This document shows positions 1,869 through 61,115 of a DNA stretch of 64,000 bases, piece by piece; position 1 is the first letter of the stretch; every line of letters starts with the position of its first letter. This DNA comes from Candidatus Micrarchaeota archaeon. GTDB taxonomy: Archaea > Micrarchaeota > Micrarchaeia > Anstonellales > Bilamarchaeaceae. The notes beneath the pieces are model-generated. The model did not search any database. It worked only from the letters and a program-made list of their open reading frames with translations, and was not told the DNA's origin. A program made the translations under genes and the position numbers. The stretch is from positions 4,075-68,074 of the forward strand of contig JBDRPL010000009.1 of NCBI GenBank assembly GCA_043827025.1, written 5' to 3'.

Positions 1869-1874
1869 CTAAAA

Positions 1875-2261: not shown

Positions 2262-2445
2262 GAATACACCTCATAATTTGTAAATAGAAGTGTATGGTTA
2301 AATTAAAAAAGCTTGTGAGGGGGATTGAAATCAGGTTTTTATTTGCTTCTGACGATTATGTCTTCATAAAGAACTCGACAACAATACAGATACAGAAGGG
2401 AAACGCGATAACCTGAAGCTCGGACTGCAGATCCTGGCAGTACTT

Positions 2446-2673
2446 TTGGTGCTTATGCTAGCATTTTTCCTAATCTCGCCAATCATTTCCTTGTTGCTTA
2501 TATTTGCTTCTGCCATTTGTTCATTGGCAGTGATGATACTGGCAACCATAGAGGTTGTCAAATCGAAAAAATCTGATGATTCCAAGGCCCTTTGGATACT
2601 TGGAATCTGGTTGTTGCTAGGTCTGTTAGGAGTAATACTTTATTATTTCATAGGAAGGGAAAAGAAACAATAA
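2446..2673 (+). CDS. PLDc N-terminal-like small membrane protein (start uncertain)
   Basis: Two hydrophobic helices with K(A)LWIxxIxxLxxLGxILYYFIGR pattern; frame open upstream to 2353 without ATG. Confidence 0.65.
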   Translation: MVLMLAFFLISPIISLLLIFASAICSLAVMILATIEVVKSKKSDDSKALWILGIWLLLGLLGVILYYFIGREKKQ

Positions 2674-2681
2674 AATTATTT

Positions 2682-3062
2682 CTACCTTTTTTGAGTATAC
2701 CCTATACCTATAACAAACTCATCACAATATCTTGACAAGTATGCGGACCTTGGCTCCAAGTTCTTGCAGTTGGGTTTGTTCAGGCTCACCAATTTTTTTA
2801 TTATCTTCCTTATATCAGCTACTGTTTCTTTTATTTTTGTCACGTTACGGGCGAGTCCAAGAGTATTTTCCTTATCCGCTATCTCTAGGAACTTTTTGAT
2901 GCCCATGTTGATACCTGAGACTGGCTGTTTTAGTTCTAGGTTCCTAAATACCCACCCTGGTTTCATCTGCGAGCTGAAATGGTTCATAAAGTTGAATTTT
3001 CTATCTTTCAGTTGGACGAAATTTCCGTTGAAATAGTAATAACTATCCATTGTGTCCGGCAT
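2682..3062 (-). CDS. Hypothetical protein
   Basis: Open frame downstream of TPR gene; ATG at 3062 removes the overlap; no motif recognised. Confidence 0.55.
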   Translation of the reverse strand: MPDTMDSYYYFNGNFVQLKDRKFNFMNHFSSQMKPGWVFRNLELKQPVSGINMGIKKFLEIADKENTLGLARNVTKIKETVADIRKIIKKLVSLNKPNCKNLEPRSAYLSRYCDEFVIGIGYTQKR

Positions 3063-8353: not shown

Positions 8354-8518
8354 TGGAACTATTTTACCTTTTATGTTTTTTAATCTTCCCTGCCAGACTT
8401 TTCCGGTGATTATGCAGATACTAAGAAATTTTTAGTTTCAGGAATTGCAGTGTCTAAGCTGGGCGAATGAAAAAATATAAAAAAAAACAAAAAACAAATA
8501 AAACTGTTTTTTCTTTTT

Positions 8519-18998: not shown

Positions 18999-19067
18999 AT
19001 TACCACCGGAAGTATTGCTTCGCTAAGATTTATATTGTTTCTTCACCATATTCTTGCAGGTGTTTTC

Positions 19068-23463: not shown

Positions 23464-23669
23464 GTGGAAAACAATATCGTGAAACAAATAAAAACCATCA
23501 GGATTCCTTTTTTTGGTAGTTACCGAACGAGCGTTGCTAATAAACCCCTAGGTTTTGCCTACTTTCTGAGCAACCTTCAGACTTTATGAGCAAACGGGAC
23601 TATTTTAGGAACGTTTACCGAACAGTAAGCTTTATAAATCTGTTTTTTGAAAAGGTATCAGGCGTTTTT

Positions 23670-26009
23670 ATGAATTGTCGAAACATCATGTTGGTTCTTC
23701 TGGGATTGTTATTGGTTAGTGGGTTTGGATTTTCAGCTACTATTTTTGTTAATGGCACAGATACCCAAGCTCCCAATTGTGGTGGTTTTGATAGCCGGGG
23801 TTATGCAAATTATACTACAATCAGTGATGCCATAAGTTTTGCATCTGCAGGAGACCAGATAATTATATGTAAAAAAGATGGAGGGTATTTTGAAAACATC
23901 GTTGTTAACAAGTCTTTGAATATCACTACTCCAAACAATGGTTCTGCAGCAACACTTTATGCTCTTAATACAAAATTGCCAGCCATAAACATAACAGCTA
24001 ACTGGACAAACATATCATTTTTACATATCTCTGGTGCAGGTGTGAATGAGGTGGTAGGTGCTCCACCCGCTGGAATTCGCATAAATGCATCCCACATAAA
24101 CATTTCAAACGTAAATATCTCCAATTGTACTTATGGTGTTTATCTTGATGTTACTTTGGAGCATGTTGAATTTAGGGACAGTACCAGACCGCTCTATAAT
24201 TATTTCTATAACAATAGGGTCTATAATAATTCTATAGGGTTTTATCTGGCAGGCAATGGTACTTTTGTGAATAACACAGTTTTTGATAACTGGTTATATG
24301 GATTTTATATAAATGGAACTGCGAGCTATTCAACGTTCATAAATAATACGGGATATAATTACACTGAAGCCGGAAATACCTCCGGCCAATTGGCTGGTTT
24401 CCAGGTGGAAGGGGCAAGCTACCTTAATTTTACCAACAATACGGCATACAATAACAATGTCGGATTTAACATAAGTACTTCGAATTATCTTAACCTTTCG
24501 AACAATACAGGTTACAACAACACTTATTATAATTTCGGATTCAGTGGAAGCAGTGCAAACCTAAGCCACAACAATGTGACTAACATCTCAAGGGGTGTTG
24601 GGTATCAATTCGACACTCGTTCCAATGTATCCTTTGCACAGAATAATTATGTATGGAACAGGACTGCAATTGGAATAGATATAAACATCAGTGGAGGAAG
24701 CGCAGTTACTACCTATTTCAATTCAATTTTCAATAATTTAACAACTACAAACGGCTCCATATTCTTTGATGCTGCTAAGGAGCTTCAAATCGTTGTATTC
24801 AGCCCTTCAAGCAGTGGGGCACTTCAAGACACTACTTGTGCAGATTCTGCTTCCCGTAACAACTGTACCAGGGTTACATATTACAATAAAGATTATGTGA
24901 ATTTGACTGCTAATTCAGTAGCTCCATCGATACTCCTTGGTTTGTATTATAATACAAGCACTGATGCTACAACAAGTGATCTTGCAATTGGAAGGATCGG
25001 GTTGTACATCACAAGTGGAAGTGCATGGGAGCATCTTGGTGTTGATACATTAGATACTAGCAGAGGTACTGTGAGGAAAGTGTTGACTTCTCCAGAGGTA
25101 AACACTTCATCAATGACGTATGGAATTTCCAACTTAATTCTTCTTTCGACGTCTTGGGTATCCAGTCCTTCGACTACAAGCACCAAGTCATTCACTCTTT
25201 CAAAGGAATTCGACTGTAATACTGGGAAACTGACTGTTGAGACTGGCGGTGTTTCATATGTTGATGTCAGTTTGGTTGAAACTTCTCCAATTTATGTTCT
25301 TATAAGTATGGAAACTACGACGGCAGATGGAGTGGAATTTACCATTACACAGAGCGGAACTTATAAGCTTCTGGCTGCTAGGTCAGGATACTATTCAGAA
25401 CAGATAGTAGACATGGATCTGACTTTGTGTTCCGAACCAACTCCTCAGACAACTCCAGAATGCACAACTGATTCAGATTGCCTTAATTCAGAAACATGCA
25501 TTGGTGGAAGCTGTGCAGCAGTAACTGGAGTATGCGGTTATGCTTCAGACCACGAATGGGTGGCATATGATTGTTGCATGGATTCAGATTGTTTGTCAGG
25601 TTACTCATGTGTCTCCCATGAATGTGTTTCAGTTGTTTCAGAACTGGAACAGCAGGCTCGTGAAGCACTTGAAAATGCAAATGCCAAGATCGCCATGGCA
25701 AAGGCAGAAGGAAAGGATGTTTCAGGAGCAGAGGCCAAATACATGGAGGCAGAACTCCTGTTCCAGGGTAATGATTACGAATCTGCAGTTTCAGTTTCAA
25801 CACTTTCCGTGTCTTTGATAAAGGATAAACCAAAGGCAAGTAGTGTGCCTCCGAAGACAACTACTACAACGACAACGCCAACAACACCTGCAAATCAGGA
25901 ACTTCCTAAGCAGGATATGGGGGGCCTTATTTTGATGTTAGGTGCAGGTGTAGTCTTATTAGTTGTTCTTGTTGGGGCTTACTTTGTGATGAAGGGAAAG
26001 AAAAAGTAA
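23670..26009 (+). CDS. Secreted surface protein: parallel beta-helix (NosD-like) region, Cys-rich module, Thr/Pro linker, C-terminal TM anchor
   Basis: Signal peptide, Asn-rich NNTxYNN-G repeats, YDCCMDSDC module, terminal hydrophobic helix followed by KGKKK. Confidence 0.85.
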   Translation: MNCRNIMLVLLGLLLVSGFGFSATIFVNGTDTQAPNCGGFDSRGYANYTTISDAISFASAGDQIIICKKDGGYFENIVVNKSLNITTPNNGSAATLYALNTKLPAINITANWTNISFLHISGAGVNEVVGAPPAGIRINASHINISNVNISNCTYGVYLDVTLEHVEFRDSTRPLYNYFYNNRVYNNSIGFYLAGNGTFVNNTVFDNWLYGFYINGTASYSTFINNTGYNYTEAGNTSGQLAGFQVEGASYLNFTNNTAYNNNVGFNISTSNYLNLSNNTGYNNTYYNFGFSGSSANLSHNNVTNISRGVGYQFDTRSNVSFAQNNYVWNRTAIGIDINISGGSAVTTYFNSIFNNLTTTNGSIFFDAAKELQIVVFSPSSSGALQDTTCADSASRNNCTRVTYYNKDYVNLTANSVAPSILLGLYYNTSTDATTSDLAIGRIGLYITSGSAWEHLGVDTLDTSRGTVRKVLTSPEVNTSSMTYGISNLILLSTSWVSSPSTTSTKSFTLSKEFDCNTGKLTVETGGVSYVDVSLVETSPIYVLISMETTTADGVEFTITQSGTYKLLAARSGYYSEQIVDMDLTLCSEPTPQTTPECTTDSDCLNSETCIGGSCAAVTGVCGYASDHEWVAYDCCMDSDCLSGYSCVSHECVSVVSELEQQAREALENANAKIAMAKAEGKDVSGAEAKYMEAELLFQGNDYESAVSVSTLSVSLIKDKPKASSVPPKTTTTTTTPTTPANQELPKQDMGGLILMLGAGVVLLVVLVGAYFVMKGKKK

Positions 26010-33340: not shown

Positions 33341-34489
33341 CTATTCCTTATGTATGAAAACTATCCAGATCCAGCCAATCCCAAGAACAGCGATCAGATA
33401 AATTCCAATCCCTGAAATCACATCCCTGAATCCTACACGTCCGCATTTATGATCTTTTATTCTGGTTCCATTCTCGCATTTCAAATCAACACACTTGTTG
33501 TTTTCACATCCCTGTGTTTCACTGCAATCTGCTCCAACCATGCATTCGTAATCTACGCACATGTGGTTCTGCGGGTACTGGGCATACTTGCATAATATAC
33601 TTTCACACATCTTTTCGAAGCACCTCTGGCTTGCTAGGCATTGGTTGTCAGAACAGCATTCATATTTTATGCACTGATGGTCCAAGATATGTTCGCACGG
33701 TTCGCACATGAATGGAATGCATTTATTCCCTAAGCATTTGCTTTCTTCAGAACAATCCGAGTTTTCTGCGCATTCGTATTTCGTGCATTTGTTTTGGTCG
33801 CAGTATTGCCCGCTCTTGCAATCTTCCTTCGAGCAACATTCATATTGAATGCAGGTGTGGTTTTGGACATGTCCGCAGCTGCAGTCTAGATCAATGCAGA
33901 AATTGCTACTGCATTTCTGGCCGGCTCCGCAGTCAGCATCAGCACAGCACTCATAAGGTACAAACACATGGTCTACGAAATGGCCGCATTCATTGTTTGT
34001 TTGTATTGGTTTGCATTTAGTGGTACACCCGCTTATGCTGCAATACTCGTCGCTTCCGCAATTTGCATCAGTGTAGCATTCATGGCTGGACTTTCTGGTA
34101 ACTTGTACGTTGTCATTACGGTCCATACAGTACCAGCCTTCGTTGTTTGTACCTCTTCCCTCGACAAATACATATGCGCACTGCTTGAACATCAATATAT
34201 TGCTCCCAGTGGGTGCAGGGAATCTTCCAGTGAGGCTTACCTGCATTTCTTCGTTCGGCCCAAGGGTTTTTTCTAATTCTTTCATTCCGAAAATCCCAAC
34301 ATCTTCAATGTAATGCGCCATCTTGGTGACTGTGATTGTCTCGTCGCCTGTGTTTTGGATATAAACTCTTGACAAGTATGTTCCTTCTTCGACACAGCAT
34401 CCGTTGCAGTCAAAATCAGAATCCATTTCCATAGTAACTGTGCTGAAAGAAAAGGTCAGCACTAACAATACTAGAAGCAGTCTTTTCAT
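33341..34489 (-). CDS. Cys-rich surface protein with C-terminal TM anchor
   Basis: Signal peptide, FDCNGCC domain, about five YECx(5)C modules, terminal TM helix. Confidence 0.85.
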   Translation of the reverse strand: MKRLLLVLLVLTFSFSTVTMEMDSDFDCNGCCVEEGTYLSRVYIQNTGDETITVTKMAHYIEDVGIFGMKELEKTLGPNEEMQVSLTGRFPAPTGSNILMFKQCAYVFVEGRGTNNEGWYCMDRNDNVQVTRKSSHECYTDANCGSDEYCSISGCTTKCKPIQTNNECGHFVDHVFVPYECCADADCGAGQKCSSNFCIDLDCSCGHVQNHTCIQYECCSKEDCKSGQYCDQNKCTKYECAENSDCSEESKCLGNKCIPFMCEPCEHILDHQCIKYECCSDNQCLASQRCFEKMCESILCKYAQYPQNHMCVDYECMVGADCSETQGCENNKCVDLKCENGTRIKDHKCGRVGFRDVISGIGIYLIAVLGIGWIWIVFIHKE

Positions 34490-36359: not shown

Positions 36360-38114
36360 CTACTCTTTCTTTTCCTTTGTTTTCTCTGTTGTACTGTCTT
36401 TTAGTTTGGGCCTTGTTCTTAAGTATACGAGCGTAAGGGCAGCGGTTATCACAACAACTATCAGTAGTGCATAATCCAGTTTTTCATCATCAAAAATTAT
36501 TCCGCGTTTCTTCTTTTTGTCAATTTCAGTGTCTGTTTTATCTGCCATTGTGCTTCCTGATGCAATTGGCGTTCCGTTCTTAGAGAACTTAAAGTCATAA
36601 ACTCCTGCATTGTCTGCCATTAATATTGCTCTTCCCTTTTCATCAGTTATGATTGTTTTCTTCTCCCCATTAGGGTCTGTTATCGTGACAGTTGTTCCCT
36701 GGGATGGCTTTCCGCATTCATTCACTTGTATGTTTATGTTGTCACCAACATTTACTGTTGGAGGGATTGTTGTCTGGTATTCTGTGCAATCTTTCATATC
36801 TGTGCATTCTCCTGCCCTGCAATACTCGGTGTCTGCACAATCCTGGCTTGTGGTGCATTTGGTTTTTCCCCCATTATTCCCATTAGGGGGTGTTATCCCG
36901 CCATTGCAATTGAAATCATAATCCGTTTCATACATCCCGCCATCTGTGTATCCTGAAGCATATACGCTTATTCTGTGAGTTCCGTAATTTAGGTTCATAC
37001 TTGTCTGGCCTGAGGCGTCTGTCTGGAAAGGCACTTCATCAACAGTTACATATGCGTTTTGGATAGGCCCGGTTACTGAATCTGTAACTGTGACTATAAT
37101 TCCGTTTGGGCAATCATTGCTTATTTCCACTTCAATATGGCCTTTGTCCATACACGCGTGGTCATAGCATATTTTACCTGTGCCGCATTCAGTATCAGAG
37201 CAGCAGGTATATGTGGTCCATGCATGATGTTCTATCTTTCCGCATGTGCCATGTGTTTCGACTTCCCTGCATTTTGAATAGCATGAGGTTCCGGCATTAT
37301 AACAGTATTCATTGTCCTTGCAGTCATCATTTGTTTCGCATTCGTAGCTTGTCTTGGAAGCCAGCTTGAATATTTTAGGTTCGCATTCGATCATTTCGTA
37401 AGGAGTTCCCTGATTGTTTTCAAAATAAACGCAAACATCATATTCCAAATTGTATTCCTTTGTTTCTGGCAATTCCCCTGAGATCTCAAAGGCGTCATTT
37501 TCCAGCATGTTTATTCTGGTCCCTGTTGCATCAGTGTAATTTCCAAATAGCATCCCATCCTTTGTTTTCAGCTCGATTTTCTTTACCTTTATTTCATTGT
37601 ATGGGTTATTGTTAGTCACCTCTGCAATTCCAAGGTATGTGCTTTCCGAGAAGCAGCATCCGTCTTGGCATCTGAAGTGGACGTTAGTTTCAATTCTATC
37701 GCTCGGATTATATGTGCACTCTACTTCTGAGTCATAGAGATGCACACTTTTCGTTCCGCTGCAATCCCATTGCGTATTCCCTGGAGTCCCTCCGATTTCC
37801 TCGTACTGGGCACATATAAAATAATATGCGTCATTCTCATTTGGGAGTAATCCGCTTACTAAGTATGTTCCTGAAAGACCAACTGAGATATGCTGTCCAT
37901 TTAGGTCAGTCCATGTTCCGAAAACCTGGTTGTTTGACATCAGCCTGAGTTCTATGGCATATATATTTATTGCAGCGTTGTGGTCATTTACTATTTCCAC
38001 ATTTGCAGAATATGTCTGGCCTTTTGTGCAGCAGCTTCCGCAGTTGAATGCTGCAGTTCCATCAATTGCAAACAGTGTTCCAATGACCAATAGTAACAAA
38101 ACGAGCTTTTTCAT
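36360..38114 (-). CDS. Cys-rich surface protein with duplicated N-terminal domain, Ig-like domains and C-terminal TM
   Basis: Signal peptide, FNCGSCC and FRCQDGCC repeats, YTCCSDTEC module, QTDASG/ITDEKG Ig-like turns, terminal TM helix. Confidence 0.85.
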   Translation of the reverse strand: MKKLVLLLLVIGTLFAIDGTAAFNCGSCCTKGQTYSANVEIVNDHNAAINIYAIELRLMSNNQVFGTWTDLNGQHISVGLSGTYLVSGLLPNENDAYYFICAQYEEIGGTPGNTQWDCSGTKSVHLYDSEVECTYNPSDRIETNVHFRCQDGCCFSESTYLGIAEVTNNNPYNEIKVKKIELKTKDGMLFGNYTDATGTRINMLENDAFEISGELPETKEYNLEYDVCVYFENNQGTPYEMIECEPKIFKLASKTSYECETNDDCKDNEYCYNAGTSCYSKCREVETHGTCGKIEHHAWTTYTCCSDTECGTGKICYDHACMDKGHIEVEISNDCPNGIIVTVTDSVTGPIQNAYVTVDEVPFQTDASGQTSMNLNYGTHRISVYASGYTDGGMYETDYDFNCNGGITPPNGNNGGKTKCTTSQDCADTEYCRAGECTDMKDCTEYQTTIPPTVNVGDNINIQVNECGKPSQGTTVTITDPNGEKKTIITDEKGRAILMADNAGVYDFKFSKNGTPIASGSTMADKTDTEIDKKKKRGIIFDDEKLDYALLIVVVITAALTLVYLRTRPKLKDSTTEKTKEKKE

Positions 38115-48749: not shown

Positions 48750-49493
48750 CTAATCCTTTATTTGGTCCCACATAAACTCGAAGAATTTTTTATATCCATC
48801 AGCCAGTTTTCTGCCTTTCATCACGAATTGAATCGGCTCTTCGTCTAATTGGCCTGGCCCGATACCTACAAATGTAACTACTCGGTCGCCAAATATGTCA
48901 ACTGCAGTCTGGCTCGAATATTTTTTCGGAAAGAATTTGTACGGTTTGTCGACCAGTTTCAATATCTCTGGTTTCTGCTCCTTTACTTCGTAATCGAAAA
49001 TGTGCCTGAACTCAATTCCTCTTTTTTTCCGCTCCTGGTCGAACTTAACCAGAAAATGCTTGAGTCTTGGGTCAAGCCAGAATGCCTTTGCCCCTATGAA
49101 ATAAACAGTCTCGCCAGTGTCAAGTATGTCCTGCAAATACTGCTTGAAACCATTGATTCCTTTATAGACATAAGCCGTTTCGTCTTCTTCATACCTATTG
49201 AATTTCTTTTCCAAATCCGGCAGTATCTCATTTAGCTTCTTTTCCTTTTCCTGTATCAAATCCAATAGCCGAGAAGGGTGAATGGCGTGATACTCTTTTC
49301 GGTTGTGAATAAATGTTTCAGATATTAGCCCTTTTTCCAGCAGTTTGGCAAGCACATCATAGATATTTCTTCTATGGACTTTTGATTTGGTCGCCATTTG
49401 CTCTATTGAAGAGCTTCCCAATGACAGGAGTGATTCATAGACCTTGGATTCATTTTGGCCAAGACCGAGTTCTTCTAATATTTTCTCATACAT
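48750..49493 (-). CDS. TrmB family transcriptional regulator
   Basis: LGLGQNESKVYESLL...VHRRNIYDVLAKLLEKGL wHTH, C-terminal PLD-like sensor region. Confidence 0.9.
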   Translation of the reverse strand: MYEKILEELGLGQNESKVYESLLSLGSSSIEQMATKSKVHRRNIYDVLAKLLEKGLISETFIHNRKEYHAIHPSRLLDLIQEKEKKLNEILPDLEKKFNRYEEDETAYVYKGINGFKQYLQDILDTGETVYFIGAKAFWLDPRLKHFLVKFDQERKKRGIEFRHIFDYEVKEQKPEILKLVDKPYKFFPKKYSSQTAVDIFGDRVVTFVGIGPGQLDEEPIQFVMKGRKLADGYKKFFEFMWDQIKD

Positions 49494-49498
49494 GTTTC

Positions 49499-49711
49499 TC
49501 ACAACAATGCAATAAGTTCTTCCTTCGAAAGGCCCATGACTCTCAGAATTTGCAAAAGGGTTCCTTTTTTGAGTTCCTTATGCTGAGGGATAACGAGAAG
49601 TACAGATTCCTTTTTTAGAATAAGGTGGCTGCCTTTTTGCCTGGTTATTGCAAAACCGATTTTTACTGCCACTTTGGTAAGTTCTGCACCGCTTATAACT
49701 GGCAGTTTCAT
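49499..49711 (-). CDS. hicA: HicA mRNA interferase toxin
   Basis: GFAITRQKGSHLIL, VIPQHKELKKGTLLQIL. Confidence 0.93.
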   Translation of the reverse strand: MKLPVISGAELTKVAVKIGFAITRQKGSHLILKKESVLLVIPQHKELKKGTLLQILRVMGLSKEELIALL

Positions 49712-49715
49712 ATCT

Positions 49716-49943
49716 TCACGAAGAGAATGCGGATGGTTCTACGACAGTAATGTTCTTTAGGATTGATCGAAGCTTGGAACCTTCTATCTCTTCCATGTAT
49801 ACCTCTGCAGCTTCCTTTATGTTGGCGAATGCTTCCTCTTTTGTTTCTCCTTGTGAGATGCAACCTGGAAGTTCAGGAACATATACGGTATATCCGCCTT
49901 CTTCTTGTTTTTCCAAGACTACATGGTATTTCATATTATTCAT
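49716..49943 (-). CDS. hicB: HicB antitoxin (short form)
   Basis: EEGGYTVYVPELPGCISQGETKEEAFANIKEA. Confidence 0.93.
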   Translation of the reverse strand: MNNMKYHVVLEKQEEGGYTVYVPELPGCISQGETKEEAFANIKEAAEVYMEEIEGSKLRSILKNITVVEPSAFSS

Positions 49944-50051
49944 TATATTCCACCTTGTTTTTATTCTTACTGTTTTTCTTATGGTGATAAATGCCACCAA
50001 CATTATTTAAGTATTCCATATGTCATAATAAAAATCAAAAGGTGTTTTTAT

Positions 50052-50720
50052 ATGAAAACAAGAAATCGTATAACAAAGATTGCAACTGCGACTGTAGCAG
50101 CAATAACAATCGCAGCATTATGTTTTCCATTCAAGGCAAAAGCTGACGAGCTCTCGTTAACTCGAGGAACTGCAGCACAACTTTTTTATCAAACTAACAG
50201 AGAACAAAGACAGAAAGTAGGAATAGGATTTGATTCGACTTTCAGTTTAAGGGATTTTTCACTTGGTTTAGGTACTTCTGTTGTTTCTGAACTTGGAAAA
50301 GGTAACACTTCGCTTGAACGGGCAGGTCTTTCATTCGGTTTTCCGCTTCCTTTTGGTCTGAGTGCAACAACCTATGCTCAGATATATCAGTTCTTAGGTG
50401 GACAACGTGCATTTGGCGGAGTGCTTCATTTGCCCTTAGGACAAGTGACTTTGCAAGCTGGTGGAGAAAGAGATGTTGCAGGTGCAACCCCTGTTTTTGC
50501 AGGCGCGGATTTTCCCATTGGACCAGTTCTTATTTCACCAACAGCAATAGCTCCAATGGTTGATGGACAAGATTATCCTAACCTAGGAGGAACAGTAAAA
50601 CTAACCTGGAAAACAAAAGTAGCAAATTTCTTCCTGCAGGTTTTTGGAATGACAAATCCAGAGAAGAAAGAGCTTTTGGCAGGAAATGTGCAGGCAGGAG
50701 TGGAAATTCCAATCAACTAA
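50052..50720 (+). CDS. Secreted protein with amphipathic beta-strand patterning (candidate transmembrane beta-barrel)
   Basis: Signal peptide ending AKA|D, about 11-12 alternating strands with PLG/PIG turns, C-terminal QAGVEIPIN. Confidence 0.55.
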   Translation: MKTRNRITKIATATVAAITIAALCFPFKAKADELSLTRGTAAQLFYQTNREQRQKVGIGFDSTFSLRDFSLGLGTSVVSELGKGNTSLERAGLSFGFPLPFGLSATTYAQIYQFLGGQRAFGGVLHLPLGQVTLQAGGERDVAGATPVFAGADFPIGPVLISPTAIAPMVDGQDYPNLGGTVKLTWKTKVANFFLQVFGMTNPEKKELLAGNVQAGVEIPIN

Positions 50721-52604: not shown

Positions 52605-53216
52605 TTATCCGGAGAGTCCTGGCATATCTCCTTCACAGCTGAGCATTATTGCTTCCTGAGTATCAGGATCATCATAGCCCTCCATCATCATGATGAGTTC
52701 TATGCCGAATATAGTTGTCTTTTTGTTTTCTGCATCTCCTCCCCTCATCATATTTATCACGGGGTTTGGAAGTGTGCATTTCTTGTATTTTCCAGCATAT
52801 GCTTTTTGGTCTTCCATCTGTATGTTGTCAGCAGGGCCATATTGTACCTTGACCATGCATCCGTCACCTGATGGGCCTTCTATAGTGAAGTCCAACCCCT
52901 TATCTGGTTCTGTGACCTTTGCCTTTGAACAGGCAAGTAAATTCTCATAGATGCAGTAATTTGCATTGATGTCGTTATCTGTTGTTGGCGGAACTGTTTT
53001 TTCATAGATCTTGCCGCAATCCGCGTATGTGGGTGCAGTTGTCACCGGCGTTGTCGTTACTGGGGGTGTTGTTTGTGTGCCATCTGTAGTGGTTGTTGTT
53101 TCCGTTGTTGCAGGTGCATTTTGATCTATTGTGCTTGTGCTGGTACAGCCGCTGAGCATCAGCATCGCAATTATTAATCCTATCAAAAGGACCGACTTAT
53201 TTTTTTGAAATTCCAT
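52605..53216 (-). CDS. Lipoprotein with Thr/Pro linker and Cys-containing domain
   Basis: Lipobox LSGC, TTTPPVTTTP linker; GGAGGG RBS before ATG 53216. Confidence 0.8.
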   Translation of the reverse strand: MEFQKNKSVLLIGLIIAMLMLSGCTSTSTIDQNAPATTETTTTTDGTQTTPPVTTTPVTTAPTYADCGKIYEKTVPPTTDNDINANYCIYENLLACSKAKVTEPDKGLDFTIEGPSGDGCMVKVQYGPADNIQMEDQKAYAGKYKKCTLPNPVINMMRGGDAENKKTTIFGIELIMMMEGYDDPDTQEAIMLSCEGDMPGLSG

Positions 53217-53233
53217 TTTATCCCCTCCTTTCA

Positions 53234-54136
53234 TTATTTTTTGTGTAGGTATTCCTTCACCATTTCTTTTATACCTTCGGGTGTCTTCCTTGGCTTGAAC
53301 TTCAGTTCTTTCTTTGCCTTTGCGCAGTTAAAAAACCTGTCGTTGGCAAGTATGTTCAGGTGCTCGGAAGTAAGGAATTGTTTTTTATTCATCAGCTTTT
53401 TTATCATGCCTTGTAATAGGAAAAGCGCTTTGGCGATTGCCACACTTGTTTTTTTCGGCTCCATCCTGATTCTCAGAGCTTTGCAAACCGCCTCATGTGT
53501 TTCTATTTGAGTTATCGGGTCAGCGCAAACAACATAAACTCCTGGTTTTGCATTTACTGAGTTTGCGATTGCTCGTGCAACATCGTCCACATGCACAAAC
53601 GGAAGATGGTTCTTTCCATCTCCAATTATTGGCATCCTGCTCTTTGAAATATATTCAATCATCTTGAAATAATCTTCGAAACCAGGACCATATATCGTTC
53701 CAATCCTAAGCACCACATTTCCCTTGCCTTCCAAAACTTCCTGCTCGCTTGCATATTTGCTCTTTGCATATTCGCTGTCAGGTCTGCATCTTGTTTGTTC
53801 ATTAGCAGGGAGTTCCGCAAGTTTTTTGCCATAGACTGATATGGAACCTGCATAGATTATCCGTGTTTTTTTCGGGTCAATGGAATCACAAATCCTTTTC
53901 GTCAATCCGTAATTCGCATGCCACAATTCTTTCTTGTCATTGAATTTCATGGAGCCTGCAAGATGTATCACTGCATTTGCGCCTTTGAAAGTCTGTTTCA
54001 AATCAAGATTCGAATCGCGAAGATTAACAGGAATGGCATTTGGAATCAACTTTAAGACTGTCTTTCCAAGCCTTCCCTTAGCGCCTGTTATGTATATCTT
54101 CAGGTTCTGTTTAGGTTTCAATATACTCACTTTCAA
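53234..54136 (-). CDS. NAD-dependent epimerase/dehydratase (extended SDR)
   Basis: ITGAKGRLG, VIHLAG, YAKSK, LRIGTIYG, FVHVDDVA. Confidence 0.92.
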   Translation of the reverse strand: MKVSILKPKQNLKIYITGAKGRLGKTVLKLIPNAIPVNLRDSNLDLKQTFKGANAVIHLAGSMKFNDKKELWHANYGLTKRICDSIDPKKTRIIYAGSISVYGKKLAELPANEQTRCRPDSEYAKSKYASEQEVLEGKGNVVLRIGTIYGPGFEDYFKMIEYISKSRMPIIGDGKNHLPFVHVDDVARAIANSVNAKPGVYVVCADPITQIETHEAVCKALRIRMEPKKTSVAIAKALFLLQGMIKKLMNKKQFLTSEHLNILANDRFFNCAKAKKELKFKPRKTPEGIKEMVKEYLHKK

Positions 54137-54757: not shown

Positions 54758-55582
54758 GTGATGGTAAGCCAGAAAACACTTATTTATGGTTCTGTTGCAA
54801 TTGGCGTGCTGGGTTTTTTCCTTAGCCTCATAAATGCTTCAGGCCCTAGTACAAACCCTCTTTTAGGGATGATAGGCGCAATATTTGCAGGGATGGGCGC
54901 GCTTTTTGCGGTAATTTTTGTAAAGTTTGGTTACATTGTGATACCTGCAATCACGAAAAGGACCGGCACTGTGGTTCAGTTTGAGAATTCCTATGAGATA
55001 CCTCCTTCAGAGGATGTGGTTGTGAAGAATGTTAATGGTGCATATTATGCCTCAGCATTCCTTAGCCTGGAGATATTTGAATCCGCCTCGGAAAAGTCCA
55101 ATGAGCAGAATATCGCATACAATGAGTTTTTCGAAAGGGCAATTTCGAACCTGAAATATGTCACAAAAATCTCATACTTAGTGTATGTCGAAGATATCAC
55201 AGAAGAAAGGAAAAGAATAGATACTAGGAGAGCAGAAGCCCAGCTTAGGCTCCAAAGAGAGAGGGAAAAGGGCGAACAGGACGTATTGAGGATCGACAAG
55301 TTTGAGAAAGAGATTTCGATGTTTGATGGCCAGCTTGACAAACTCATACGCGGTGAAAAGCCTATTGGTGTAATTGCAACAGCAATGACCTGCGCAGTTG
55401 GAGTTAGCAAGGATGCTGCAATTGCAAATGTGAAGGCGCAGGCCAATGAACTTACGACTCTATTGTCAAATGCACTTAATGTGAAAGTGGAGCAGCTTAC
55501 TGGAGACCAGATGCTGAAATGCTTTGAATGGGAATCTTTCTTCCCTGCGAAACCGCAGGATTTACAGGATAACTTGGTGTAA
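54758..55582 (+). CDS. Two-TM protein resembling VirB3 plus the VirB4/TraC N-terminal region
   Basis: Two N-terminal TM helices, coiled insert, C-terminal A...A.EL...L.N.LNV.V..LTG..M..CF pattern; directly upstream of the ATPase. Confidence 0.55.
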   Translation: MMVSQKTLIYGSVAIGVLGFFLSLINASGPSTNPLLGMIGAIFAGMGALFAVIFVKFGYIVIPAITKRTGTVVQFENSYEIPPSEDVVVKNVNGAYYASAFLSLEIFESASEKSNEQNIAYNEFFERAISNLKYVTKISYLVYVEDITEERKRIDTRRAEAQLRLQREREKGEQDVLRIDKFEKEISMFDGQLDKLIRGEKPIGVIATAMTCAVGVSKDAAIANVKAQANELTTLLSNALNVKVEQLTGDQMLKCFEWESFFPAKPQDLQDNLV

Positions 55583-55585
55583 GAT

Positions 55586-57124
55586 ATGTTGGGCGGAAAA
55601 TTGCATCTAAGCAAAATCAAGAACGTGGATCTTGCAAGGAGGAATCTTCTTGTGCATCCTCCTGAGCCCCCTATAGAGATAGTGTTTCCCGACCCGCTCA
55701 ATTCCGTTTATGTGGGAAGAACAAAGATATTTAATGTTCCTTTTTACTGGTCCTATGAAAATGTTGCAAATCCGCACATTGCAGTGGTAGGTATCTCAGG
55801 TTCAGGTAAAAGTTATTTCATAAAAACCTTTCTTCTTAGGTCATCCTACGTATGGAATGCGAACGCACTTATAATCGATTGGGCTGGGGAGTATAAGGAC
55901 TGGGTAAGGCAGACTGGCGGGAAAATCATCTCTCTGGGAAAAGGCTCGTTTCTCAACCTTCTTGATCTTGGAGGCATGAAGCCGTATAATAGGATAAAAC
56001 AGATAATGAGGACCCTTGGTATACTTACAGATATTGATCAATATCCTGAGCAAAAAAGGCTGACAGAACAGGCTTTGGAAAAAGCATACATAAAGGCAAA
56101 ATACAAGATGGATCGGAATGACCAGAAGGATGAGCTGGGAAAAGGCCTTACGCCCCCGACTTTAAGAGACGTTGTCAATGAACTGAAGGAGCAGGCGACT
56201 CTGGGCACATATGAATTCCCTGCTGAACTCGAGAATGCTATTTACAGATTAAAACAATTCACTAGAAGCGGAGAGGATTTCTTTGCGCAGCAGAGCACAG
56301 TTTCGCTTGATGAAATAACTACTTCCGGCCTTGTTGATCTTGATTTGTCTGGTTTGCCTGATGAAACCTTTAGGGCATTAGGCGCACTTACTATCCTACA
56401 GTTCCTTAAGGAGAAGATGAGGCTGACAGGATGGGAATCCAAAAAAGGAGTGAAATTTATAATCGTGCTTGATGAGGCTTGGAAAATAGCTGGTGATGAG
56501 AAGAGTGATGCAGTCATGATAATAAGAGAGGGCCGTAAATATAATTTCTGCATGATAGTGGCATCCCAAAATCCTACAGACATCAATGAGGCCATTTTTT
56601 CCAACGTTGGAACAACATTCATCTTGAAGATAAAGTTCGATAAGTATCTGGATTATTTACAATCTACATTAAACTTCAGCAATTATATGCGAAATGCAAT
56701 CTCGAAATTCGGTGTAGGGGAATGTGCAGTCAATATGGCCTTTACTACGCCCACCCAATATCCCCCAACATTCCTGATCAGTAAAATCGAAGGTGAAGAG
56801 CCTGCAGAGGAATATTTCCTTGACTTAGAACTGGCACTTACTCCTGAGCAGAAGAAAAAGATGGAATTCAATACGAGGGTGGCATTCCTTAAGAAAGAGC
56901 TTACAAGGAAACTCGTGCAATATGGTTTGAATCTTGACAAGGTCAAAGAAACGATTTCTGCATTTGAGAAGGAGAAACGGCACCTAGGAGTAGTTAAATT
57001 TGTCATTATGCTTGAGAGGTATGGTATAGCAAGGCAAAACATCTCAAAGCTTCTGAAGGAATCAGGGCTTGACGATCGTGTAATAATCAGTATTTTTGCA
57101 AAAGCCAGAAGCGGAGGTGTCTGA
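55586..57124 (+). CDS. VirB4/TraB/HerA-superfamily secretion ATPase with extra C-terminal helical domain
   Basis: PHIAVVGISGSGKS Walker A, IIDWAGEY, IVLDEAW Walker B, REGRKY, ASQNPTD. Confidence 0.88.
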   Translation: MLGGKLHLSKIKNVDLARRNLLVHPPEPPIEIVFPDPLNSVYVGRTKIFNVPFYWSYENVANPHIAVVGISGSGKSYFIKTFLLRSSYVWNANALIIDWAGEYKDWVRQTGGKIISLGKGSFLNLLDLGGMKPYNRIKQIMRTLGILTDIDQYPEQKRLTEQALEKAYIKAKYKMDRNDQKDELGKGLTPPTLRDVVNELKEQATLGTYEFPAELENAIYRLKQFTRSGEDFFAQQSTVSLDEITTSGLVDLDLSGLPDETFRALGALTILQFLKEKMRLTGWESKKGVKFIIVLDEAWKIAGDEKSDAVMIIREGRKYNFCMIVASQNPTDINEAIFSNVGTTFILKIKFDKYLDYLQSTLNFSNYMRNAISKFGVGECAVNMAFTTPTQYPPTFLISKIEGEEPAEEYFLDLELALTPEQKKKMEFNTRVAFLKKELTRKLVQYGLNLDKVKETISAFEKEKRHLGVVKFVIMLERYGIARQNISKLLKESGLDDRVIISIFAKARSGGV

Positions 57125-57125
57125 A

Positions 57126-57425
57126 TTGACAAACAGCATAAAGATGCTCAAGGATGATTTCAGGAGACGGCTAAGAGCATATGGTCTTTCAGAAGAAAGG
57201 ATGGAAGAGGCATCAAGGCTTTTTGAAAGGAACAATAGCCATGTGGATGTAATTTCATTTGTTCTCATGCTTGAGCGATTTGGAGTTTCAAGACGAGACA
57301 TCCGCGATTTTCTCAAGGAAGCGGGCATAGATGACATCACACTTATAAATGTCTTTGGAAAAGTAGACATCAAGAAAAGCGATTTTTCCAGCAGTGGCAT
57401 AACTCAGGTAGTCCTGGAGGATTGA
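57126..57425 (+). CDS. Small protein paralogous to the ATPase C-terminal domain
   Basis: GGAGGTG RBS before TTG 57126; gapless alignment to the ATPase tail with 30/74 identities counted by hand. Confidence 0.8.
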   Translation: MTNSIKMLKDDFRRRLRAYGLSEERMEEASRLFERNNSHVDVISFVLMLERFGVSRRDIRDFLKEAGIDDITLINVFGKVDIKKSDFSSSGITQVVLED

Positions 57426-57427
57426 AC

Positions 57428-57811
57428 ATGAAAGTCTGCATCATATGCGAAAAAGAAGTAAAAGGCTCGAATTCAGGGGCGAAGAAGGTAAAGATAGATG
57501 TGGTCATCAAAGCCATCAGGTCTATGAAGTCTTTTTTGAAGGTGGCAAAGAACAATGGACTGTATGTGTGCAAGAAAGATTTTGAGTCTTACAGGAAGAA
57601 AAGGGAGAAATTTGAAAGAGATATGGTGCTTGTTTCAGCCATTGCCGCGATAGTTGTATTAGTATTGATAGGAATCCCGCTTCTTTCAGGGCGACTCAAT
57701 CTTCTTGATGTGTTTGCCTCTCTGTTCCTGGGGGTGCTTTTGCTTGCCTTTGGAGTTATCTTTAGATACACGCCTGCAATAGAAGGCGCAGGAAAAATCA
57801 AGGGTGTTTGA
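57428..57811 (+). CDS. Two-TM protein with N-terminal Cys motif
   Basis: CIIC...YVC soluble part followed by two hydrophobic helices; GGAGG RBS. Confidence 0.8.
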   Translation: MKVCIICEKEVKGSNSGAKKVKIDVVIKAIRSMKSFLKVAKNNGLYVCKKDFESYRKKREKFERDMVLVSAIAAIVVLVLIGIPLLSGRLNLLDVFASLFLGVLLLAFGVIFRYTPAIEGAGKIKGV

Positions 57812-57812
57812 C

Positions 57813-58544
57813 ATGGTTGACCAGAAAAGAATGGGGGAACCTTCAGTAGGCGGGTTCAAGATAAAAGGCGTGGTGCTGAAAAAATCTTTGAGTAACGTGG
57901 CCGAGATTTTGAGGACAGTTTCATTTTTGGAAGTTGCTCTTGGAACAGACAAGGTGAATGCAGCTTATGTAGAAAGTAAGGATATCAACAACAATCCTTA
58001 TCTTTTTTCGATAATCCAGATAAGTAAGAATGAAGTTGAAGTTATATATTCCATTACTCCTGAAATTTCTCCTGCTAAAAGAAAGATGGATGTGATAAGG
58101 TATTTCCTGAATATCCTCAGCCTTGTGGGCGAATATTATTCAGTGGACAATAAAGTAGTCTATCAGCTCATCGAAGAATCGCTCACTTCAATTGCAGAAT
58201 CTGTGACTCTTGATTATTCTAAGCTTTATACCTCTTATGACAGCCTTAAGGCAGAGGCTGATACTCTCAGGAAGAAAAATGAGAGGATGAAGGATGAGAT
58301 TCAGGCGCTGAACAATAGGAATTTTGAGCTCAAATCGAAAAATGATGAACTTTCGCTTGTGGTTAATGAATTTGAGGGGCTTTCAGATGAGGCGATTATG
58401 GCAAGGCTTCAGAATTGGGTGCTAGAGCATGATGGTGAAGTGAATGTATATGAGTTCGCAAAGGTGAACAAGGTAATCGAGACAAGGGTAGAATCAGCAC
58501 TGAACAAGCTCGTGAGCGAAGGTTACCTGGAGCTCCTGAAATAA
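57813..58544 (+). CDS. Coiled-coil protein with C-terminal winged helix
   Basis: Heptad stretch YDSLKAEA...VVNEF; C-terminal VNVYEFAK...VESALNKLVSEGYL. Confidence 0.75.
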   Translation: MVDQKRMGEPSVGGFKIKGVVLKKSLSNVAEILRTVSFLEVALGTDKVNAAYVESKDINNNPYLFSIIQISKNEVEVIYSITPEISPAKRKMDVIRYFLNILSLVGEYYSVDNKVVYQLIEESLTSIAESVTLDYSKLYTSYDSLKAEADTLRKKNERMKDEIQALNNRNFELKSKNDELSLVVNEFEGLSDEAIMARLQNWVLEHDGEVNVYEFAKVNKVIETRVESALNKLVSEGYLELLK

Positions 58545-58559
58545 ACTAGAAGGATTGCT

Positions 58560-61115
58560 ATGGTGGATGTTACAAAACTCAGGATTTCAAAGAAATCGTA
58601 CAGGTTCGAGGTAAAGAAGAAATTCGAAAATGCCCAAATCTACAAGCCAGTCAAACGCAGCCTAGGCGAGCAGTTGAAGAATTCACTTTCAAAGATGTTC
58701 AAGCCAAAGCCAAAGCCCAAAGCAGTAGTAGGTTTTATTACTCCACCCAGTGCCCATCATGGATTCAATTTCAAGCTTCTTTTTGGAGCAATAATCATTG
58801 CTTTCATTTTAGTATATGCCGGCTTTGCATTTTATGTCCAGACAATCTCCTCTTTCAACGAGCCTGTTAAAGTCATTGTAAGGGGTTATTTTGATAGTTC
58901 CATTGTTGACAAGGGAATCATAACTGCAGGAGATAGGACTAATAGCAAAAACATAGGCTATGTCCGCCTTGACCATAAGTCCTCTAATATTGATAGTTAT
59001 AGTGTTAACATCTCCGTTTATGATCAGTATCTGCCATCTGAGATATTCGTACTTGACAGTGCAAGATATCAGGCAGATTCGTTTGATGAATTCTTTTTTG
59101 ACCTTAAGAATGATCTCTATTCTATGGGGATGCATGTGACCAAGATTTCGATAAAAGACCTCCATTCCATGCCTGCAGGCGCCATGATCATCGTACCTTC
59201 AGGCCAGATACCAGAGGAGTTCCTTGGGGATTCAGGGCTTCTCAAAAGCCTTACTTCAAAAGGCTCAGTCATAATTTATATTGGAAACAACTTTGACCAA
59301 ATGTTACGCACCTCTTCAGATGGCCAGGGCGTTGTTGTCAAGACTCCTGATGCCCTAAAAACAAACTCCGTAGGATTCACTGCCTCAAGGCCGACATGTT
59401 CTGGTCTTGGGCTATATGATTCATTATATGATGTCAGAGGTTCATCTTCTCTTTATGGTTGTGTGAGCCTGATCAAATATGGCCAGGGTAACATATTATT
59501 CCTTCCTCAAACCCTTGATTCAGGATGGATCTCTAATGGAAGCCCTGACCCAGCTCTTGCATCAAAAGACATATCCAAGATAATTTATGATGCTGCATGG
59601 CTGAAACCCTCTATTGAAAACAAATATTATTATTTCAACAAATCAGAAGATGGTATTACTGATTTTTTCACCAATACTTTTGATGGTGATGATAAATATG
59701 TCCGCTTTGAGATACGAAGCTATTCAAGCAACATAATGTTCCTTGATGTGCGTACACTTCACCTTGCTAAGAATGTAAATGGGGATCTGACAACTGAAGG
59801 GGGATATATTGTTTCAGTAGAACAAACAGATTCCAGAATCAGGATGCATGCCGACCTCAAGGATCCAAAGCCTGAAGAGAAACAACTCTATTTTGTTATC
59901 ACAAAGAATGGTGAATTTGTTGGTGAAAGGACTCCATTTTCAAGAGGTCCTGTAAGTACGATAACTCCTGTTTCAGGAGATGTTTCAGTTGCCCTTGATT
60001 CCGGGGAATATATTGCAGAGCTTGTGGATGACGAAAGTTATGTGTATGCGAAATCTTACCTCAAGGTCGTTTTTCTAGATATAGCGTACACAGGTACAAA
60101 CAACCTGCGGACAATAGCTGGTTTCTCCATTAAGAAAGATGGAAAGCCTTTCAAGGTGACAAGCGAGTTCAAGGTGAGTGCTGACAATGGAAAATTCGGC
60201 ACATACACCTTTAAGGATGTTTCTGATGTGGAAGTTGATGTTTCCAAATATGTTCCTGACGGCCTTCCGAGTGGGGAGCATATATTTACATTTACCATAG
60301 GTAATGTGAAAAAAGATGTCACTGCCCAGACCTTCGGAAGCGCGTGCGTTGGCATATTCTGCAAGGCGGAATTCATAATTGTTGTTGTTTTGGCAGTAGG
60401 AATATTCATTCTTGGATATTACTTTGCAAAGAAAGACAAGCCAATATATCAGATAGATATACCTGATTTCCCTCCTATTATCAGGAGCAAAGTTCCTCTT
60501 AGGACTTCAGAAGTGCTTGAGCTTTTCAATAAGGTCAATGAGGATTACAAATGGAACCACAGCCCGCTTACGATTACTGAGTTCAAGGAAAGTTTCAAGA
60601 CTATCTACCATGGAGGCATGTCATTGAATATAACTGATTTCAATGCAGAATATGTTCTTGATTCGCTTATTTCAAGAGGCCTCGTGAAGGAATGCCTTGA
60701 TTATTATGCACCTTCTTCATGGGAACTGGCTTCTAAGAAAACAACTGTTTATCTTGCTATATTCAGGAAGATAAGGGATATTTGTGTTAATAATGCTGTT
60801 CCTTTCACCCGGATGGGTGAAGTGAAGTCCTGCGACACAAAAATTACTACGGTAGGCCAGGAAATGCTTGTCCATATCTGGTCCGAAAGCGGAGGCAGTT
60901 TACCTGCATTCTTTAAGAATCTCCTGAAGTCATCAAGGGATGGCATAAATCTTGTCATTTTCAAAGACATTGTCTCAAAAGAAGCGTTTTATTCATATCT
61001 GCTTTCGCCAAACCCGCCTATTCTTCTTGTGAAAATGGCTGTTGAGAACGGATCTATACAGTTGATGACTGTTGATGAGTTTGAGAAGATGGTCAAGGAC
61101 TTGAAGTTCGTCTAG
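58560..61115 (+). CDS. Large membrane protein: two TM helices enclosing a ~500-aa beta-rich domain, plus a cytoplasmic C-terminal domain
   Basis: TM near aa 72-93 and aa 607-625; last gene of the co-oriented cluster. Confidence 0.8.
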   Translation: MVDVTKLRISKKSYRFEVKKKFENAQIYKPVKRSLGEQLKNSLSKMFKPKPKPKAVVGFITPPSAHHGFNFKLLFGAIIIAFILVYAGFAFYVQTISSFNEPVKVIVRGYFDSSIVDKGIITAGDRTNSKNIGYVRLDHKSSNIDSYSVNISVYDQYLPSEIFVLDSARYQADSFDEFFFDLKNDLYSMGMHVTKISIKDLHSMPAGAMIIVPSGQIPEEFLGDSGLLKSLTSKGSVIIYIGNNFDQMLRTSSDGQGVVVKTPDALKTNSVGFTASRPTCSGLGLYDSLYDVRGSSSLYGCVSLIKYGQGNILFLPQTLDSGWISNGSPDPALASKDISKIIYDAAWLKPSIENKYYYFNKSEDGITDFFTNTFDGDDKYVRFEIRSYSSNIMFLDVRTLHLAKNVNGDLTTEGGYIVSVEQTDSRIRMHADLKDPKPEEKQLYFVITKNGEFVGERTPFSRGPVSTITPVSGDVSVALDSGEYIAELVDDESYVYAKSYLKVVFLDIAYTGTNNLRTIAGFSIKKDGKPFKVTSEFKVSADNGKFGTYTFKDVSDVEVDVSKYVPDGLPSGEHIFTFTIGNVKKDVTAQTFGSACVGIFCKAEFIIVVVLAVGIFILGYYFAKKDKPIYQIDIPDFPPIIRSKVPLRTSEVLELFNKVNEDYKWNHSPLTITEFKESFKTIYHGGMSLNITDFNAEYVLDSLISRGLVKECLDYYAPSSWELASKKTTVYLAIFRKIRDICVNNAVPFTRMGEVKSCDTKITTVGQEMLVHIWSESGGSLPAFFKNLLKSSRDGINLVIFKDIVSKEAFYSYLLSPNPPILLVKMAVENGSIQLMTVDEFEKMVKDLKFV

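Follow-up and report, generated by a model that had tools for sequence, protein, structure and literature searches.

A gene in a 64,000-nucleotide stretch of DNA from a Candidatus Micrarchaeota archaeon (GenBank assembly GCA_043827025.1, contig JBDRPL010000009.1; hereafter the window) encodes a small exported protein whose mature part is predicted, with high confidence and good support in silico, to be a closed 12-stranded β-barrel of the bacterial outer-membrane type, and the residue patterning of the modeled barrel makes it probable that the protein works as a channel embedded in lipid. Membrane β-barrels are seen as characteristic of the outer membranes of bacteria and of organelles that descend from bacteria. 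A reading of the window made from sequence only had proposed a β-barrel protein at this gene and a possible pore in an archaeal outer membrane or a host membrane. Our analysis places the protein in a new family restricted to archaea; its predicted fold is a familiar type that one would not expect in such cells. The family amounts to about a dozen distinct sequences among ∼15 billion proteins, and its relatives were followed at loci labeled L001, L002, L004, L005, L007, L008, L010 and L011, which together with the window make nine independent loci.

The gene and the parts of its product are laid out as follows:

50040-50044, plus strand: Shine-Dalgarno-like AGGTG, 7 nt 5′ of the barrel ATG
50052-50720, plus strand: barrel-protein precursor gene, stop codon included, recognized by its open reading frame (ORF), translation, family of ∼12 and AlphaFold2 (AF2) 12-stranded barrel
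50052-50144, plus strand: Sec-type signal peptide, residues 1-31, with basic n-region, core at 10-25 and c-region PFKAKA; predicted cleavage between AKA and D
50157-50711, plus strand: barrel domain, residues 36-220, from DSSP on the AF2 models, Foldseek and face analysis
50691-50714, plus strand: C-terminal motif Q-A-G-V-E-I-P-I, residues 214-221, which fits polar-x-G-x-x-Hy-x-Hy, from the family alignment

With its ATG at 50052 and a TAA at 50718-50720, the ORF specifies 222 residues; GGTGA or GGAGGTG stands at the matching position in L001, L004, L007 and L011. A longer TTG-initiated ORF from 49905 is not credible, as it would cross conserved promoter DNA. The protein begins with MKTRNRITK, continues with the hydrophobic IATATVAAITIAALCF and then reads PFKAKA followed by DE. 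The cleavable signal that had been proposed is thus present as a Sec-type N-terminus, while cleavage itself is a prediction from the A-K-A triplet by the -3/-1 rule, applied to the sequence alone. AF2 models a helix at residues 8-23 of the signal peptide with low confidence. Hydrophobic 19-residue windows (mean Kyte-Doolittle value of at least 1.6) start only at residues 7-10, spanning residues 7-28, and the same scan found no transmembrane helix beyond the signal peptide, the mature part reaching a maximum of 1.37, in accordance with the earlier description. Residues 26-34 (50127-50153; LPFKAKA-EEL) are conserved far beyond what is usual for the end of a signal peptide, with P26, K28 and A31 at least 90% conserved in the family down to 26% overall identity, and this unusual conservation may reflect a dedicated processing or targeting step. 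No paralogue of the gene was found in the window or at any of the other loci.

The fold was predicted twice with AF2. With an alignment of 3 sequences the best result was a 12-stranded all-β protein with a predicted local distance difference test (pLDDT) score of 82.4, and two of the five models failed (pLDDT 52 and 28). With 10 sequences, an alignment that excludes the L004 protein and has an effective depth (Neff) of about 3, all five models converged at pLDDT 80-86, the best reaching 86.1 with a predicted template-modeling score (pTM) of 0.75, and every 10-residue block of the mature protein lay at pLDDT 87-97. Strand boundaries were identical in the two sets of models, with 12 antiparallel strands (b1-b12) at residues 36-49, 54-66, 69-80, 86-98, 104-112, 118-129, 132-141, 146-156, 159-169, 178-187, 192-202 and 207-220. 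The alternating segments listed by the sequence-only reading are all present among them, though the strands number 12 and not 10; those it missed are b1 (36-49, LTRGTAAQLFYQTN) and b9 (159-169, VLISPTAIAPM). Its turns are indeed short and rich in Gly and Pro, but they are not uniformly Pro-Gly. Loops and turns measure 2-8 residues and are slightly longer on the side opposite the termini.

Structural comparison of this model returned barrels of the same kind. Among the top 50 Foldseek matches in the PDB, all were bacterial outer-membrane barrels or designed transmembrane barrels, at 5-12% sequence identity, and no soluble barrel, lipocalin or sandwich was among the top structural matches. The best size-matched neighbors include KdgM (4fqe; TM-score 0.73 normalized to the target, root-mean-square deviation 3.8 Å over 186 columns), VhGalP (8xua; TM-score 0.60/0.63), the β-domains of intimin and invasin, FapF and OmpG. 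In BFVD, which holds predicted viral structures, the named matches at E ≤ 0.001 were phage-encoded porins or outer-membrane proteins, and several matches were unnamed.

To judge whether the barrel is a membrane or a soluble one, we analyzed how residues are distributed over its two faces. The alternation of apolar and polar residues is clear in all strands but b9, in which both faces are apolar, and this holds for the window protein and for the family mean. Family-wide, the apolar face consists to 83% of L, A, V, I, G, F and T and is about 7% charged, while the opposite face contains 18% Gly plus S, T, Q, N, D and E and is about 22% charged. From the termini rim to the far rim, the aromatic fraction along the apolar face runs 0.19, 0.06, 0.04, 0.03 and 0.15, and charged or polar residues occur on this face only beyond the far rim. 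We estimate from this profile two aromatic girdles about four steps apart with an aliphatic middle, a span of roughly 20–24 Å. Strand parity assigns the invariant E89 to the apolar face, with an uncertain register.

Conservation is concentrated on the other face. Strand columns that are at least 90% conserved number 19, and 14 of these lie on the polar face (G57, G59, G74, Y108, A120, G122, G137, E139, D141, F149, G151, G179, F198 and G216) versus 5 on the apolar face; mean entropy is 1.45 on the polar and 1.83 on the apolar face (Mann-Whitney p = 0.012). Soluble barrels conserve their hydrophobic core, whereas in membrane barrels it is the lumen that is conserved, and the lipid side need only stay apolar. 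Since the polar face is the conserved one here, the pattern is the reverse of that expected for a soluble hydrophobic core. We argue that the less-conserved apolar belt, the two aromatic girdles and the conserved, Gly-rich polar face together form the residue signature of a lipid-embedded barrel, and they speak against a soluble barrel with a polar exterior, the case that was to overturn the original proposal.

A soluble explanation can nevertheless be built by turning the barrel inside out, as strict alternation alone cannot tell which face points outward. The protein would then be a secreted carrier with its apolar face turned to the lumen, able to bind or transport hydrophobic molecules such as lipids, and could serve to scavenge lipids. 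Archaea of the DPANN group generally depend on host lipids, the organism is of the reduced-genome symbiont type (PMC8975820), and lipid-trapping porin-like barrels are known in bacteria (PMC12228718). We consider such a carrier unlikely, as the face that would bind the cargo is the less conserved one, its aromatics stand at the two rims and not at the center, charges flank it, and the face that would meet water, with its 18% Gly and only about 22% charge, would make a poor soluble surface. On geometric grounds rather than from coordinates, a 12-stranded barrel is also too wide for these side chains to fill, and the top structural matches contain no soluble barrel.

The last strand was examined for the signal that bacterial outer-membrane proteins carry at their C-terminus; the consensus used for comparison is reportedly that of Kutik et al. 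2008. Within the motif at residues 214-221, G216 does not vary across the family, a single further residue (N222) follows the motif in the window protein, and the C-terminal residue is F or L in 5 of 11 family members. This likeness to the β-signal is a resemblance only, and any amphipathic last strand fits the consensus in part.

Upstream of the barrel gene, a divergent regulator and a conserved intergenic block accompany the family from locus to locus. In the window they comprise:

48750-49493, minus strand: TrmB-family regulator, 247 residues from the ATG at 49493 (PF01978, E = 5e-15); a GTG at 49502 is the start given in the ORF list
49499-49943, minus strand: hicB-hicA toxin-antitoxin pair (Pfam HicA_toxin and HicB_lk_antitox), between the shared promoter/operator and trmB
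49499-49711, minus strand: hicA
49716 to about 49943 or 49934, minus strand: hicB, probably with the shorter start
49983-49998, unstranded: candidate operator with the palindromic sequence GGTGATAAATGCCACC, located just upstream of the TATA box and invariant in a four-locus alignment
50005-50013, plus strand: TATA-box-like ATTTAAGTA (ATTTAAATA in relatives), near-palindromic, a putative promoter element
50019-50028, plus strand: conserved element TATGTCATAA (consensus TATGTYRTAG), lying 3′ of the TATA box and 5′ of the start codon

The TrmB winged-helix domain PF01978 occupies residues 9-76 of the window regulator, and precomputed matches to it exist in L001, L002, L005, L007, L010 and L011. 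In eight of the nine loci a TrmB-family gene is either the divergent neighbor of the barrel gene or found no more than about 2 kb away; at the ninth, L008, an AsnC-type regulator takes its place. The flanking genes vary by locus, and the barrel gene with its TrmB-family neighbor is the only constant. The window regulator is 80–81% identical to its orthologues in L001, L002 and L004, where the barrels are 48–51% identical, and 60% identical to that of L005, where the barrel is 31% identical. Since regulator and barrel diverge in parallel, the two genes have been co-inherited, and by these identities the barrel evolves much faster than the regulator, as exposed proteins often do. At L007 the region 832-2781 (minus strand) encodes a 649-residue fusion of a TrmB-like module and a Peripla_BP_5/6 ligand-binding domain, which hints that the regulon responds to a small-molecule ligand.

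The conserved intergenic block has the form TGGTGATaAtTgCCACCAA-N4-ATTTAAaTA-N5-TATGTyrTAg. Its palindrome, searched as GGTGAT-N4-RYCACC, has one match in the 64-kb window against 0.04 expected, and the relaxed form GGTGRY-N4-RYCACC occurs exactly once per TrmB-orthologue locus, always in the divergent region between trmB and the barrel gene, and is absent from loci with other regulator types. We infer from this co-occurrence that the TrmB-like protein binds the palindrome and in this way regulates the barrel gene as well as the unit from which it is itself transcribed. The TATA-like element is kept in the window, L001, L002, L004, L010 and L011 and, being near-palindromic, may serve both divergent units. 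The TATGT element is possibly the region of transcription start; a similar TATGTTGT lies downstream of the TATA box in L008 too, despite the different regulator there.

The hicB-hicA pair is an insertion in the window's version of this arrangement. A distance of 5 nt separates the stop of hicA from the ATG of trmB, giving an apparent hicB-hicA-trmB unit, and the shorter hicB start is favored because the 95-residue ORF would overrun the conserved operator and TATA box. The pair is absent from L001, L002, L004, L010 and L011, and L005 has an unrelated pair, UPF0175 and DUF3368, at the equivalent position (7834-8645, minus strand). The occurrence of unrelated toxin-antitoxin pairs in the window and L005 indicates two independent insertions into one promoter-proximal spot.

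Taken as a lipid-embedded channel, the protein would be exported through Sec, lose its 31-residue signal peptide and fold into a compact 12-stranded antiparallel barrel. The outer surface would carry the apolar belt, about five residues tall, between its two aromatic girdles, and the lumen would be lined by Gly, Ser, Thr, Gln and Asn, by the acidic E139 and D141 and by the aromatic Y108, F149 and F198. Because the loops are very short, almost the whole protein would be buried in the lipid layer. Its likeliest job would be that of a passive channel for small hydrophilic solutes in a lipid barrier outside the cytoplasmic membrane. Transcription would start from the archaeal TATA promoter with the palindrome most likely bound by the divergent TrmB-family regulator, so that channel production could respond to a metabolite signal, possibly a sugar.

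There are three possible locations for such a channel: a lipid outer layer of the lineage's own, the membrane of a host cell, or the organism's own membrane if the barrel is gated or closed there. The last is the least likely of the three, because an open barrel would dissipate the membrane potential; the outer layer and the host membrane we leave unranked. A more specific version holds that a Micrarchaeota lineage makes a true porin-type transmembrane barrel with a β-signal-like C-terminus, which enters a lipid outer layer by an unknown insertion route or is exported as a self-inserting barrel to the host membrane. We put this forward tentatively, as a possibility that is somewhat more doubtful than not. 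If true, it would be the first membrane β-barrel channel of archaeal origin, and in its host-membrane form it would let a symbiont tap the metabolites of its host.

Several points weigh against a lipid-embedded channel, the harm that an open barrel would do in the organism's own membrane being one. The inside and outside of the barrel were assigned from strand parity, conservation and girdle patterns, using DSSP strands and the family alignment, and not from measured geometry. The period-2 hydrophobic-moment score stands at z = 2.5–2.9 against 2000 composition-preserving shuffles, and a few other ORFs in the window score similarly; alternation alone, which is moderately above chance, is suggestive, and family conservation together with the structure prediction carries the claim. 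No sequence relationship to any known outer-membrane protein family was found in Pfam, in the PDB or with hhalign, and the likeness is one of fold only. The great rarity of the family is easier to reconcile with an accessory role, or with poor sampling of the clade, than with a component of every envelope. To our knowledge, a transmembrane β-barrel protein is yet to be demonstrated in an archaeon, nor do we know of an Omp85/BamA, POTRA, Skp or SurA partner in archaea; none of these was seen among the about 50 window proteins compared with Pfam. A survey of outer-membrane barrels deemed its archaeal hits probably non-functional, contamination or dead transfers (PMC8346858).

The envelope itself adds to this side of the balance. 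The description of Micrarchaeota as two-membraned goes back to early cryo-electron tomography (Comolli 2009, as summarized in PMC4243693), and the two cultivated Micrarchaeota were later shown to have an S-layer over one membrane (bioRxiv 10.1101/2021.04.28.441871; bioRxiv 10.1101/2024.05.20.594898). Placement in an archaeal outer membrane is therefore not supported by current knowledge of cultivated Micrarchaeota, and this part of the original proposal is left as a possibility for the lineages that carry the family. In our literature search no report of a β-barrel membrane protein in Micrarchaeota or DPANN archaea was found, the nearest mention being a possible distant PopA relative in Altiarchaeales (PMC12228718). 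The window also encodes three predicted surface proteins of the ordinary archaeal sort, each equipped with a signal peptide, a membrane anchor at the C-terminus and a basic tail:

23586-26009, plus strand: predicted surface protein with a right-handed β-helix domain
33341-34489, minus strand: predicted surface protein
36360-38114, minus strand: predicted surface protein

The last two appear to be paralogues, both having the Cys-rich N-terminal motif CNGCC / CGSCC...GxTY, and each of the three may be an envelope or adhesion protein.

These envelope findings leave room for another explanation, in which the protein is a building block of a proteinaceous envelope, such as an oligomeric assembly within or beneath the S-layer or a part of an apparatus of cell–cell contact, and its apolar surface is spent in protein contacts. 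Besides the S-layers of cultivated Micrarchaeota, tomograms of strain ARM-1 show an unidentified barrel-shaped envelope complex at host contact sites (bioRxiv 10.1101/2024.05.20.594898), and the fast divergence of the barrel, 48–51% identical where the neighboring regulator is 80% identical, is typical of surface components. However, that complex is 21 nm wide, far beyond one 12-stranded barrel, we have no evidence for an oligomer, and no homologue is attributable to the cultivated strains. An apolar belt around the full circumference, bordered by two girdles, is moreover what contact with lipid produces, and we judge a role as envelope building block quite unlikely.

It is less likely still that the barrel is an artefact of prediction and that the real fold is a sandwich, an open sheet, amyloid-like or unstructured. 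The shallow alignment of 10 sequences and the two failed models of the 3-sequence run keep a small chance of this alive, as do idealized alternating sequences in general, which can draw barrel predictions. On the other side are the convergence of all five 10-sequence models with unchanged strand boundaries, the placement of invariant Gly and Pro at turns and on one face, and a strand number and strand lengths that are kept in relatives down to 26% identity. Should the prediction fail after all, the family would be a clean case of structure prediction misled by idealized alternating sequences.

The distribution of the family bears on where the gene came from. Only two relatives, at 49–51% identity, were found in 5.8 billion clustered proteins, and an exhaustive phmmer search of 1.84 billion representatives gave eight true relatives at 26–51% identity, 126–255 residues long (one truncated, the others 211–255). 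Two giant repeat proteins in that search, P0008 and P0010, were rejected as spurious, since they match through many short low-complexity stretches. No bacterial homologue appeared among the 1.84 billion representatives or in any other search made. Pfam, NCBIfam and PDB sequences yielded no usable match to the single protein or the family profile, and weak PDB-sequence matches (choriogenin H, E = 0.04, and others) are noise. The only match among GTDB species genomes is L004, a metagenome-assembled genome (MAG) of a Candidatus Micrarchaeota, and a cluster look-up identified relative P0007 as MFA5049537.1, "hypothetical protein [Candidatus Micrarchaeia archaeon]". Relatives thus occur only in archaeal contexts, two of them in MAGs labeled Micrarchaeota or Micrarchaeia.

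All nine loci, which come from different samples, have archaeal neighbors. Those in the window include FttA/aCPSF1, Cdc48, PAC2, Sec61-beta, aIF2-gamma, a proteasome subunit, geranylgeranyl reductase and H+-pyrophosphatase, and across the loci we find eIF-1A, eIF-2-beta, RIO1, archaeal-type LysRS, FEN-1, Nre and the wyosine radical-SAM enzyme. The lineages that carry the family are uncultivated and differ widely in base composition. Since it is inherited together with a TrmB-family regulator and a conserved promoter block, the barrel gene is an old, regulated archaeal gene and not contamination or a recent transfer. The family is small, old and vertically inherited, and so far limited to Micrarchaeota-type archaea.

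One compositional feature sets the gene apart. Its G+C content at third codon positions (GC3) is 0.239 against 0.412 ± 0.048 in the window (z = -3.6), the lowest of 48 genes, and in all six loci tested (the window, L004, L005, L008, L010 and L011) the barrel gene is among the lowest four at any local GC3 (0.23–0.48). Because the low value recurs in six loci, it is a property of the gene and not the trace of a recent arrival; expression-linked codon bias, a constraint from mRNA structure or compensation for Gly/Ala-rich positions 1 and 2 could each be behind it. That a bacterial outer-membrane protein gene reached this contig by misassembly or by recent horizontal transfer (the latter named as fatal by the sequence-only reading), as GC3 rank 1 of 48 might at first suggest, is scarcely credible given a recurrent low GC3, nine independent archaeal loci from different samples, co-inheritance with a TrmB regulator and an archaeal TATA/operator block, and no bacterial homologue in any search made.

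A second gene family, of 224–307 residues and without a signal peptide or a Pfam match, adjoins the barrel gene in four loci:

L002, 3994-4707: second family, downstream of the barrel gene
L004, 10659-11372: second family, downstream of the barrel gene
L011, 10702-11376: second family, downstream of the barrel gene
L005, 8812-9735: second family, upstream of the barrel gene

Its members share the motifs EAFRLIS.EDAR.EGFFRKAG and YPENN...LLAEFEAML.SAI.H. As an obligate partner of the barrel it was rejected, being absent from the window and L001.

Elsewhere in the window, a cluster at 54758-61115 (plus strand) is built around a HerA/VirB4/TraG-like P-loop ATPase at 55586-57124 (DUF87, P-loop_TraG), with these companions:

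54758-55582, plus strand: protein with two transmembrane segments, beside the ATPase
57804-58544, plus strand: coiled-coil protein, beside the ATPase
58560-61115, plus strand: 851-residue protein with two hydrophobic segments and no Pfam match

The cluster may specify machinery for transferring DNA or protein, akin to Ced/Ted or type-IV systems. At 52605-53234 (minus strand) a 209-residue product without a Pfam match is a candidate archaeal lipoprotein: its hydrophobic N-terminus precedes a lipobox-like LSGC, and a linker rich in Thr and Pro comes next. The ThyX (Thy1) protein at 19035-20669 (plus strand) has 544 residues, about twice the usual length, with two matched stretches, which suggests a tandem duplication or fusion. 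No tRNA gene or Rfam family reached threshold in the whole 64-kb window.

If the prediction of a lipid-embedded channel holds, the composition of the envelope in uncultivated Micrarchaeota, and the movement of solutes between DPANN symbionts and their hosts, become testable with one small protein, and the question arises of how a barrel is inserted without the machinery that assembles β-barrels (BAM).

In architecture the closest known proteins are KdgM and NanC (PF06178; 4fqe, 8xua), which are also the best size-matched structural neighbors: like them, the archaeal barrel measures about 190 residues when mature, has 12 antiparallel strands joined by very short loops, and is made with a signal peptide. 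The likeness does not extend to membership of PF06178, as Pfam at E ≤ 10 drew a blank for each of 10 family members, a comparison of the family profile with Escherichia coli NanC in hhalign gave a probability of 0.2%, and a PDB profile search with the family gave 0 hits. The lumens of KdgM and NanC are basic and pass acidic sugars, whereas the presumed lumen of the archaeal barrel is net acidic (D+E 14.1% versus K+R 8.2%; conserved E139 and D141). Expression of KdgM and NanC is tied to sugar-responsive regulators, to which the TrmB-family neighbor of the archaeal gene may be compared. They differ further in their host, here an archaeon without a demonstrated outer membrane or BAM machinery.

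With outer-membrane barrels in general (OmpG, intimin/invasin, FapF and porins), the archaeal barrel shares the closed meander, the apolar belt with its girdles and the conserved, polar, Gly-rich lumen, and its last strand, which fits polar-x-G-x-x-Hy-x-Hy with an invariant Gly, resembles their β-signal. Unlike them, it lacks domains outside the membrane and long surface loops, none of its loops exceeding 8 residues, and the window protein ends in N after the β-signal-like motif.

Among archaea, the only outer-membrane pore known to have been characterized is Ihomp1 (Imp1227) of Ignicoccus hospitalis, a very small α-helical protein that forms oligomeric rings and is unrelated to the archaeal barrel in sequence and fold. 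It is comparable in setting, as an envelope pore of an archaeon in close contact with another archaeon, and PMC4243693 counts I. hospitalis among the small set of archaea described with two membranes.

The control region, finally, resembles that of sugar regulons in Thermococcales. The window regulator shares the TrmB winged-helix domain with Thermococcales TrmB, but it has 247 residues and no match to the TrmB sugar-binding domain in Pfam. The Thermococcales TrmB/TrmBL1 operator (TGM) is TATCAC-N5-GTGATA; the window palindrome contains the same GTGAT/ATCAC half-sites in the opposite arrangement, with a 4-nt spacer. By analogy with the sugar transporters under TrmB control, the placement of the palindrome beside the TATA box points to a transport-related gene under transcriptional regulation.

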